In this document: in pieces, positions 1 through 565 of the stretch
Layout: the number at the start of each line of letters is the position of its first letter
Position numbering within the stretch: the first letter of the stretch is position 1
Source of the DNA: a phage
Strand: one strand, 5' to 3'
Length of the DNA: 565 bases
Sequence record: EF517090.1
The notes under the pieces: generated by a model
What the model saw: only the letters and a program-made list of their open reading frames with translations
What the model was told of the DNA's origin: nothing
The model's database searches: none
Translations under genes and position numbers: made by a program

Positions 1-441
1 GTTCCGGCTGCTGACCGTGTGTTCTACTGTGATCCAGATAGCTACTCTGCGATTCTGGCAGCACTGATGCCGAACGCAGCAAACTACGCTGCTCTGATTG
101 ACCCTGAGAAGGGTTCTATCCGCAACGTTATGGGCTTTGAGGTTGTAGAAGTTCCGCACCTCACCGTTGGTGGTGCTGGTACCGCTCGTGAGGACACTAC
201 TGGTCAGAAGCACGTCTTCCCTGCCAATAAAGGTGAGGGTAATGTCAAGGTTGCTAAGGACAACGTTATCGGCCTGTTCATGCACCGCTCTGCGGTAGGT
301 ACTGTTAAGCTGCGTGACTTGGCTCTGGAGCGCGCTCGCCGTGCTAACTTCCAAGCGGACCAGATTATCGCTAAGTACGCAATGGGCCACGGTGGTCTTC
401 GCCCAGAAGCTGCTGGTGCAGTGGTTTTCAAAGTGGAGTAA
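1..441 (+). CDS. 10A: Major capsid protein 10A, C-terminal portion (5'-partial; the gene begins upstream of the window)
   Basis: Seen in sequence: frame 1 is open from base 1 (gtt ccg gct gct gac cgt gtg ttc tac = VPAADRVFY) to TAA at 439-441. The GTG at 19-21 that the ORF track reads as a start is an internal Val codon. From recall, the translation (…FYCDPDSYSAILAALMPNAANYAALIDPEKGSIRNVMGFEVVEVPHL…GQKHVFPANKGEGNVKVAKDNVIGLFMHRSAVGTVKLRDLALERARRANFQADQIIAKYAMGHGGLRPEAAGAVVFKVE) matches the C-terminus of phage T7 gp10A nearly residue for residue. Codon usage is strongly biased toward E. coli high-expression codons (ggt, gct, cgt, ctg, aac, ttc), as expected for an abundant structural protein. 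Confidence 0.92.
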   Translation, partial: VPAADRVFYCDPDSYSAILAALMPNAANYAALIDPEKGSIRNVMGFEVVEVPHLTVGGAGTAREDTTGQKHVFPANKGEGNVKVAKDNVIGLFMHRSAVGTVKLRDLALERARRANFQADQIIAKYAMGHGGLRPEAAGAVVFKVE

Positions 442-565
442 TGCTGGGGGTGGCCTCAACGGTCGCTGCTAGTCCCGAAGAGGCGAGTGTTACTTCAACA
501 GAAGAAACCTTAACGCCAGCACAGAAGGTCACACGCACCCGCGCTGTTAACAAAGCCCGAAAAGA
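1..565 (+). CDS. 10B: Minor capsid protein 10B, made by programmed -1 ribosomal frameshift from the 10A frame at G GTT TTC (423-429); partial at both ends, with the 10B-specific extension starting at codon caa 429-431
   Basis: Seen in sequence: frame 3 has no stop from 375 to 565. Read after a -1 shift at the Phe codon it gives GFQSGVMLGVASTVAASPEEASVTSTEETLTPAQKVTRTRAVNKARK…, which is acidic and Ser/Thr/Ala-rich. Established knowledge: T7 gene 10 yields 10A (345 aa) and, with roughly 10% frameshifting, 10B (398 aa) through a -1 shift at codons 341-342. The extension here resembles the T7 10B tail (…FQSGVMLGVASTVAASPEEASVTS…ANKARKEAELAAATAEQ) as I recall it. The 10B stop should lie about 10-12 codons past the window end. 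Confidence 0.75.
423..429 (+). other. Programmed -1 ribosomal frameshift (slippery) site G GTT TTC
   Basis: Seen in sequence: the heptamer g-gtt-ttc lies in the 10A frame (Val 424-426, Phe 427-429), seven codons before the 10A stop. Phe-tRNA can re-pair from UUC to UUU (426-428) in the -1 frame, which is open downstream. Established knowledge: this is the shift site mapped in T7 gene 10. Confidence 0.7.

Follow-up and report, generated by a model that had tools for sequence, protein, structure and literature searches.

The window, by which we mean the whole 565-nt stretch of record EF517090.1 that was analyzed, was compared with known phage sequences. The data showed that it corresponds over its full length to gene 10 of phage T7 (V01146 23564-24128), with a nucleotide identity of 98.6-98.9%, and that no phage record was more than 98.9% identical across the full window. 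The exact sequence was also absent from the viral, metagenome, and genome contig collections. In the V01146 annotation gene 10A extends from 22967 to 24004, and gene 10B is a two-piece joined coding sequence (22967-24162) that runs across the shift site. The terminator Tphi is annotated in that record at 24210, which is 46-48 nt past the 10B stop; neither promoters nor terminators were found within the window. Frame 1 encodes the C-terminal 146 residues of the capsid protein, which end with ...AAGAVVFKVE, and translation confirmed the end of the capsid ORF at the position given in a preliminary description of this DNA (Table 1). The encoded protein belongs to the Pfam family PF21703 (Gp10A-like; E=1.6e-53, 182.7 bits vs a gathering threshold of 27). 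Profile positions 139-279 of 279 align to residues 1-142 of the joined translation, and the residue at which the profile ends, 142, is at the shift site. The 10A part of the window also matches residues 200-343 of the T7 capsid chains in the PDB entries 2xvr and 3j7v. The T7 capsid structures in PDB have been solved for 10A chains only, and none of them includes the 10B tail.

The slippery heptamer GGTTTTC is identical to that of T7, and its GTT (424-426) and TTC (427-429) are both codons of frame 1, located 9 nt before the stop codon. In frame 3, which is the −1 frame, stops occur at positions 12, 30, 39, 99, 105, 138, 189, 228, 234, 240, 255, 306, 315, 345, and 372. The last of them is the TAA at 372-374, and there are none from position 375 to the end of the window, so that the opening of the −1 frame precedes the 10A stop by 64 nt. 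The preliminary description had this frame open from 375 to the window end and entered at G GTT TTC, and it was exact in the coordinates, in the register, and in the peptide that it quoted (GFQSGVMLGVASTVAASPEEASVTSTEETLTPAQKVTRTRAVNKARK, the exact frame-3 translation). Its remark that the list of open reading frames contains nothing downstream also holds, solely because frames running off the window end are omitted from that list.

Table 1. Features of the 565-nt window of EF517090.1 and the data on which they are based
Feature	Position	Strand	Basis
3′ part of gene 10A (major capsid protein, residues 200-345 and stop TAA 439-441), frame 1	1..441	+	Translation, T7 identity, V01146 annotation, Pfam, PDB
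Part of the −1 frame (frame 3) without stops, continuing past the window end	375..565	+	Stop positions by frame; 63 codons
Slippery heptamer G_GTT_TTC (Val-Phe codons 424-429), zero-frame register, −1 shift site	423..429	+	Sequence; same as the T7 site in PMC5009743, PMC1635266
10B-specific coding sequence in the −1 frame (FQSGVMLGV...NKARK)	426..565	+	46 codons visible, 11 more expected past the window; T7 10B comparison, variation pattern, PHROG
TAATG, 10A stop overlapped by the in-frame ATG of the −1 frame (Met of ...GVMLGV...)	439..443	+	Sequence; unchanged across 9 T7-group phages
Basic motif of the tail, conserved sequence LTPAQKAARTRAANKA; LTPAQKVTRTRAVNKA in the window	510..557	+	Comparison of 26 unique natural tails; window changes 529 A>V, 531 A>T, 547 A>V

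The first 124 codons of frame 3 (bases 1-374) contain 15 stops, as compared to zero in the last 63 codons, and at the stop density of the upstream part a run of 63 stop-free codons has P = 3e-4. When codons of 10A were shuffled, the 22 overlapping codons stayed open in 13% of the shuffles, while dinucleotide shuffles of the 441-563 region were stop-free in 22%, which together with the overlap shuffles corresponds to a joint value of ~3%. Only two zero-frame N_NNW_WWN heptamers are present in the whole T7 10A gene, and GGTTTTC is the sole one inside the overlap. The evidence for recoding provided by the window alone is only moderate; the window by itself is no proof of recoding, and the decisive support comes from comparative data.

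The joined reading, which follows frame 1 through the Phe codon and then frame 3, gives ...AAGAVVF followed by QSGVMLGVASTVAASPEEASVTSTEETLTPAQKVTRTRAVNKARK. An alignment of the joined translation to T7 gp10B, which the preliminary description had proposed as a check, showed identity at 42 of the 46 tail residues that are visible, with four substitutions. With the initiator Met left out, 10A has a calculated mass of 36,414 Da and 10B one of 41,699 Da, and the difference of 5.3 kDa agrees with the 5-6 kDa expected there for the larger capsid species. In T7 the −1 frame closes at a TAA at the window-equivalent position 597-599, beyond the window end at 565, and in T7 and eight close relatives the −1 stop is located 10-12 codons past the equivalent of the window end. 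The tail matched PHROG 12582 (E=1e-18), and no Pfam domain was found in the T7 tail. The earlier characterization of the tail as acidic is correct for its first 28 residues (4 D/E, 0 K/R) but not for its last 17 visible residues, which are basic (6 K/R, 0 D/E), and the visible part has a net charge of +2. On the other hand, the surface exposure of the 10B extension and its use for phage display, which were also mentioned there, agree with the literature, where 10B is reported to constitute ~5-10% of the virion and its C-terminus to form an unstructured extension on the surface that serves for display (PMC8923235).

The comparison was extended to 16 named Studiervirinae, 80 IMG/VR loci whose products are related to the capsid C-terminus, nine natural T7-group tails, and 26 unique natural tails. 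The data showed that among the 16 named relatives a long −1 extension was always paired with N_GTT_TTC or C_CCA_AAG in register. The G_GTT_TTC heptamer is carried by T7, 13a, ESh3, YpYeO9, PGX1, WW2, HZP2, Klebsiella Saitama, and Kayfunavirus CLBP1, the A_GTT_TTC heptamer by the named phages CICC80001, PHB19, and an Erwinia phage, and the C_CCA_AAG heptamer by T3 and phiYeO3-12. Pseudomonas phage KNP has GGTCTTC at this position and just five extra codons. Similar results were obtained for the 80 IMG/VR loci, where N_GTT_TTC was present in register in 72, C_CCA_AAG in five, and G_GTT_TTA/T_TTA_AAG in one. The −1 extension was at least 14 codons long in 78 of these loci, with a median of 52.5 codons versus 4 in the +1 frame. 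The slippery site and the extension were lost together in KNP and in locus L054. When the joined peptide was used as a tblastn query (182 phage records), the match in more than 170 of the records had its start precisely at the first codon read in the −1 frame. Hence, the T7 10A/10B arrangement that had been assigned to this locus is borne out by the nucleotide identity to T7, by the join across the site in V01146, and by the conservation of both the site and the extension in relatives.

The pattern of variation in the tails was also analyzed. In the nine natural T7-group tails the variable sites were distributed over the first, second, and third codon positions of the −1 frame as 10/9/24, and the single indel observed was exactly one whole codon. 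The 16-residue motif LTPAQKAARTRAANKA was near-invariant at the amino acid level in the 26 unique natural tails, which come from several genera, while its synonymous sites varied freely. The exceptions were three, each in a single sequence (columns 35, 38, and 42): T7 has E at position 6, and in locus L040 R is replaced by I and A by K. The synonymous variation around near-invariant residues indicates selection on the tail motif at the protein level. A nucleotide-level constraint on CGCGCTGCTAACAAAGCCCGAAAGGAAGCTGAG..., which is invariant in nine close relatives, was also considered, but the synonymous sites vary across the 26 unique tails, and therefore the constraint acts on the protein.

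Taken with the comparative data, the window is almost certainly the 3′ end of T7 gene 10 with a programmed −1 ribosomal frameshift that makes 10B. The majority of ribosomes would read GTG GTT TTC AAA GTG GAG TAA and complete the 345-codon major capsid protein 10A, while a minority would slip one base backward on G_GUU_UUC. In this event Phe-tRNA would re-pair from UUC to UUU, and Val-tRNA would re-pair imperfectly from GUU to GGU. The shifted ribosomes would continue with CAA AGU GGA GUA AUG... past the 10A stop, adding a 53-residue tail, and the product would be the minor capsid protein 10B, the tail of which would consist of an acidic Ser/Thr/Ala-rich linker followed by the conserved basic Ala-rich motif. 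The first three bases of the heptamer, G_GU, do not conform to the canonical pattern of three identical bases (X_XX), with which P-site re-pairing would be complete, and this places the site outside the X_XXY_YYZ class, and the T7 heptamer has been described as a non-canonical exception with X_XX = G_GU (PMC5009743). Since A or C is accepted at the first heptamer position in natural relatives, it may be the Phe-tRNA in the A site, slipping from UUC to UUU, that accounts for most of the re-pairing. This position is not conserved in the relatives that keep the tail, with A_GTT_TTC being present in loci L003, L017, L007, L026, L048, and L068, and C_GTT_TTC in L037. In L039, a Vi06-like phage, the site is replaced by the canonical T_TTA_AAG three bases downstream (G_GTT_TTA / T_TTA_AAG). 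The variability of the first position together with the L039 site suggests a dominant role of A-site slippage and a shift site that is able to move.

The efficiency of shifting in wild-type T7 is ~10%, while a short GGTTTTC cassette alone supports less than 1% (PMC1635266), and a distal element in the terminator Tphi (CCCC in the hairpin), more than 200 nt 3′ of the site, is required for T7 shifting (PMC5009743). The window-equivalent position of Tphi is ~608-650, outside the window. The RNA structure downstream of the heptamer was analyzed by folding. The 136 nt that follow the heptamer (430-565) had a minimum free energy no better than shuffles (z = -0.29), while the fold of the T7 230-nt region, with the terminator hairpin included, had z = -2.3. 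In the alifold consensus of nine phages a stem begins 8 nt after the heptamer, with a covariation term of -0.23 and one compensatory pair in the whole alignment. Neither the window nor the T7 locus matched an Rfam family at E<=1. A pairing of the heptamer with GAAGGCC, located ~95 nt downstream, was also proposed by alifold; with one compensatory change only, it was treated as spurious.

This finding is already known and belongs to the textbook biology of T7; the DNA at hand is a mutated derivative of that phage. The T7 10A/10B site was described in the years 1983-1991, reportedly by Dunn and Studier (1983) and by Condron, Atkins, and Gesteland (1991), and has been commercially exploited for phage display. 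The preliminary description had also called it known biology, in agreement with the annotation of 10B in the T7 record and with its description in the literature. The window represents the same locus and shares with T7 the G_GTT_TTC heptamer, the 10A stop, and the TAATG overlap, while it differs in eight G:C>A:T substitutions and in that the 10B stop and Tphi are beyond its end. T3 and phiYeO3-12 likewise use a −1 shift in the last capsid codons to make a C-terminally extended minor capsid protein, which is annotated as a join in NC_001271. However, their site is C_CCA_AAG and their extension has 84 codons with a Big_2 domain, in contrast to G_GTT_TTC and a tail without a Pfam domain in T7. 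The E. coli dnaX and IS-element cassettes are also similar in that tandem −1 slippage on a heptamer by bacterial ribosomes gives two products in a fixed ratio. They differ in using X_XXY_YYZ heptamers with an upstream SD-like element and a nearby 3′ hairpin or pseudoknot, while T7 has G_GU (PMC5009743), and no significant nearby hairpin was found. The T7 stimulator acts instead at long range, from within the terminator at a distance of more than 200 nt, and the efficiency is ~10% (PMC1635266) as compared to ~50% for dnaX and IS elements.

The overlap of the 10A stop with an ATG raises the question of translation reinitiation. Besides the fusion being made, a separate peptide of ~52 residues that contains the basic tail (LTPAQKAARTRAANKA...) and has a function of its own could be released by reinitiation at TAATG, which we regard as improbable. 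Even less probable is a small gene of its own in the downstream frame, from which reinitiation at TAATG would give a free 52-residue peptide with no fusion. The invariance of TAATG in the nine T7-group phages is consistent with such a gene; this overlap is also present in the Erwinia phage, while it is absent from L049 and L063, which retain the tail motif. These two loci keep the heptamer and the motif without any ATG, GTG, or TTG between them in that frame, which means that the tail motif could be expressed there only by frameshift. The T3-type phages also have no ATG at the overlap. A GGAG sequence is located directly upstream of the ATG (435-438), but its spacer is just 2 nt, and WW2 and PHB19 do not have it. 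The 52-aa ORF is annotated in many GenBank records as "head protein" or "minor capsid protein," and PHROG 12582 is built from such calls, whereas the T7 record and the literature give 10B as a 398-codon fusion containing 10A (PMC1635266, PMC8923235). The opening of the −1 frame upstream of the 10A stop and the covariation of the slippery site with the presence of the extension also argue against a separate gene and for the fusion.

Two further explanations have a negligible probability. The open −1 frame and the heptamer could be functionless chance features of a GC-rich 3′ sequence, in line with the frequencies at which the shuffles of the two halves remained stop-free and with the lack of significant local RNA structure in the folding against shuffles and in alifold. 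This is in contrast to the excess of variation at third positions, the indels being only in frame, the near-invariant 16-aa motif amid synonymous variation, and the conservation of the site together with the extension across genera, with their joint loss in KNP and L054. Alternatively, the longer product could arise if T7 RNA polymerase, rather than the ribosome, slipped on the run of four Ts at the junction (425-428), and the protein sequence would be the same under either mechanism, but four Ts are far below the homopolymer lengths known to support polymerase slippage. The literature also describes ribosomal frameshifting that depends on the heptamer register and on the distal RNA element (PMC5009743), and the T3-type and Vi06-type relatives use the classic ribosomal motifs C_CCA_AAG and T_TTA_AAG.

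To describe how the window differs from reference T7, the substitutions were compared with those in natural relatives and in laboratory isolates. The data showed eight differences, at positions 33, 167, 194, 525, 529, 531, 547, and 563, and all of them are G:C>A:T transitions. In natural relatives 34% of substitutions are G:C>A:T, and the probability of eight out of eight in the window is P ~2e-4. The same mutation spectrum at a similar density was observed in four mutagenised isolates from the Bull laboratory (AY264775-AY264778), which share none of the mutations of the window except G>A at 525, present in isolates P and P82. G:C>A:T transitions are likewise seen in nitrosoguanidine-mutagenised laboratory lines. 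These data suggest that the window probably comes from a T7 line mutagenised chemically, with an agent of the alkylating type. The −1 stop and the distal stimulator, which are both beyond the window, could also be mutated in this heavily mutated lineage. Within the window the heptamer and 100 nt on either side of it are unchanged, and because of this we infer that the mutated variant still makes the −1 ribosomal frameshift.

The tail of the window contains four residue changes, which are E>K, A>V, A>T, and A>V. Three of these are located in the near-invariant motif, and the three substitutions in the corresponding stretch, KVTRTRAVN, were found in no natural relative. 10B is dispensable in the laboratory, and the three motif substitutions fit the accumulation of mutations in a laboratory-dispensable part of the protein. 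Isolates K and K115 (loci L013 and L016; AY264775 and AY264776) carry CGA>TGA at the window-equivalent position 558 (…ANKA*), which shortens 10B by 13 residues. This premature stop shows directly that T7 can do without the end of the tail in laboratory culture. Two other changes affect 10A, which are A255V (window position 167) and G264D (window position 194). Both fall within the TAGGAGTAREGTTGQK loop; no other part of the C-terminal half of the capsid protein is as variable and as prone to indels among relatives.

The practical value of these observations is in annotation, where the frameshift is missed by ORF finders. In loci L003, L004, L007, L017-L020, and L022, the tail is entered as a gene product in its own right, with a length of ~40-52 aa and under the name "head protein," "minor capsid protein," or "capsid and scaffold protein." The separate 52-aa gene calls arise because of the TAATG stop/start overlap, and the standalone tail genes, together with the PHROG 12582 family built from them, are a systematic annotation artefact. 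The questions that can be approached from the comparative data are the natural role of the basic motif and the stimulation by a terminator element more than 200 nt away.

The comparison also showed that the frameshift tails are modular. Those of the T3 type (loci L005 and L006, which are T3 and phiYeO3-12) contain the Big_2 Ig-like domain (Pfam E=2.6e-10), those of the Klebsiella Saitama/Kayfunavirus type (L008 and L009) contain an unrelated domain of ~90 aa with no Pfam match, and the T7 type consists of a short linker and the basic motif. A different organization was observed in L097 (IMGVR_UViG_3300038797_000001), which has GGTCTTC in place of a slippery site, and in which no stop is met in the −1 frame for 215 codons after that of the capsid gene, with an overlap of just 34 nt. 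This frame is probably an independent downstream gene, or it is reached by another recoding site.
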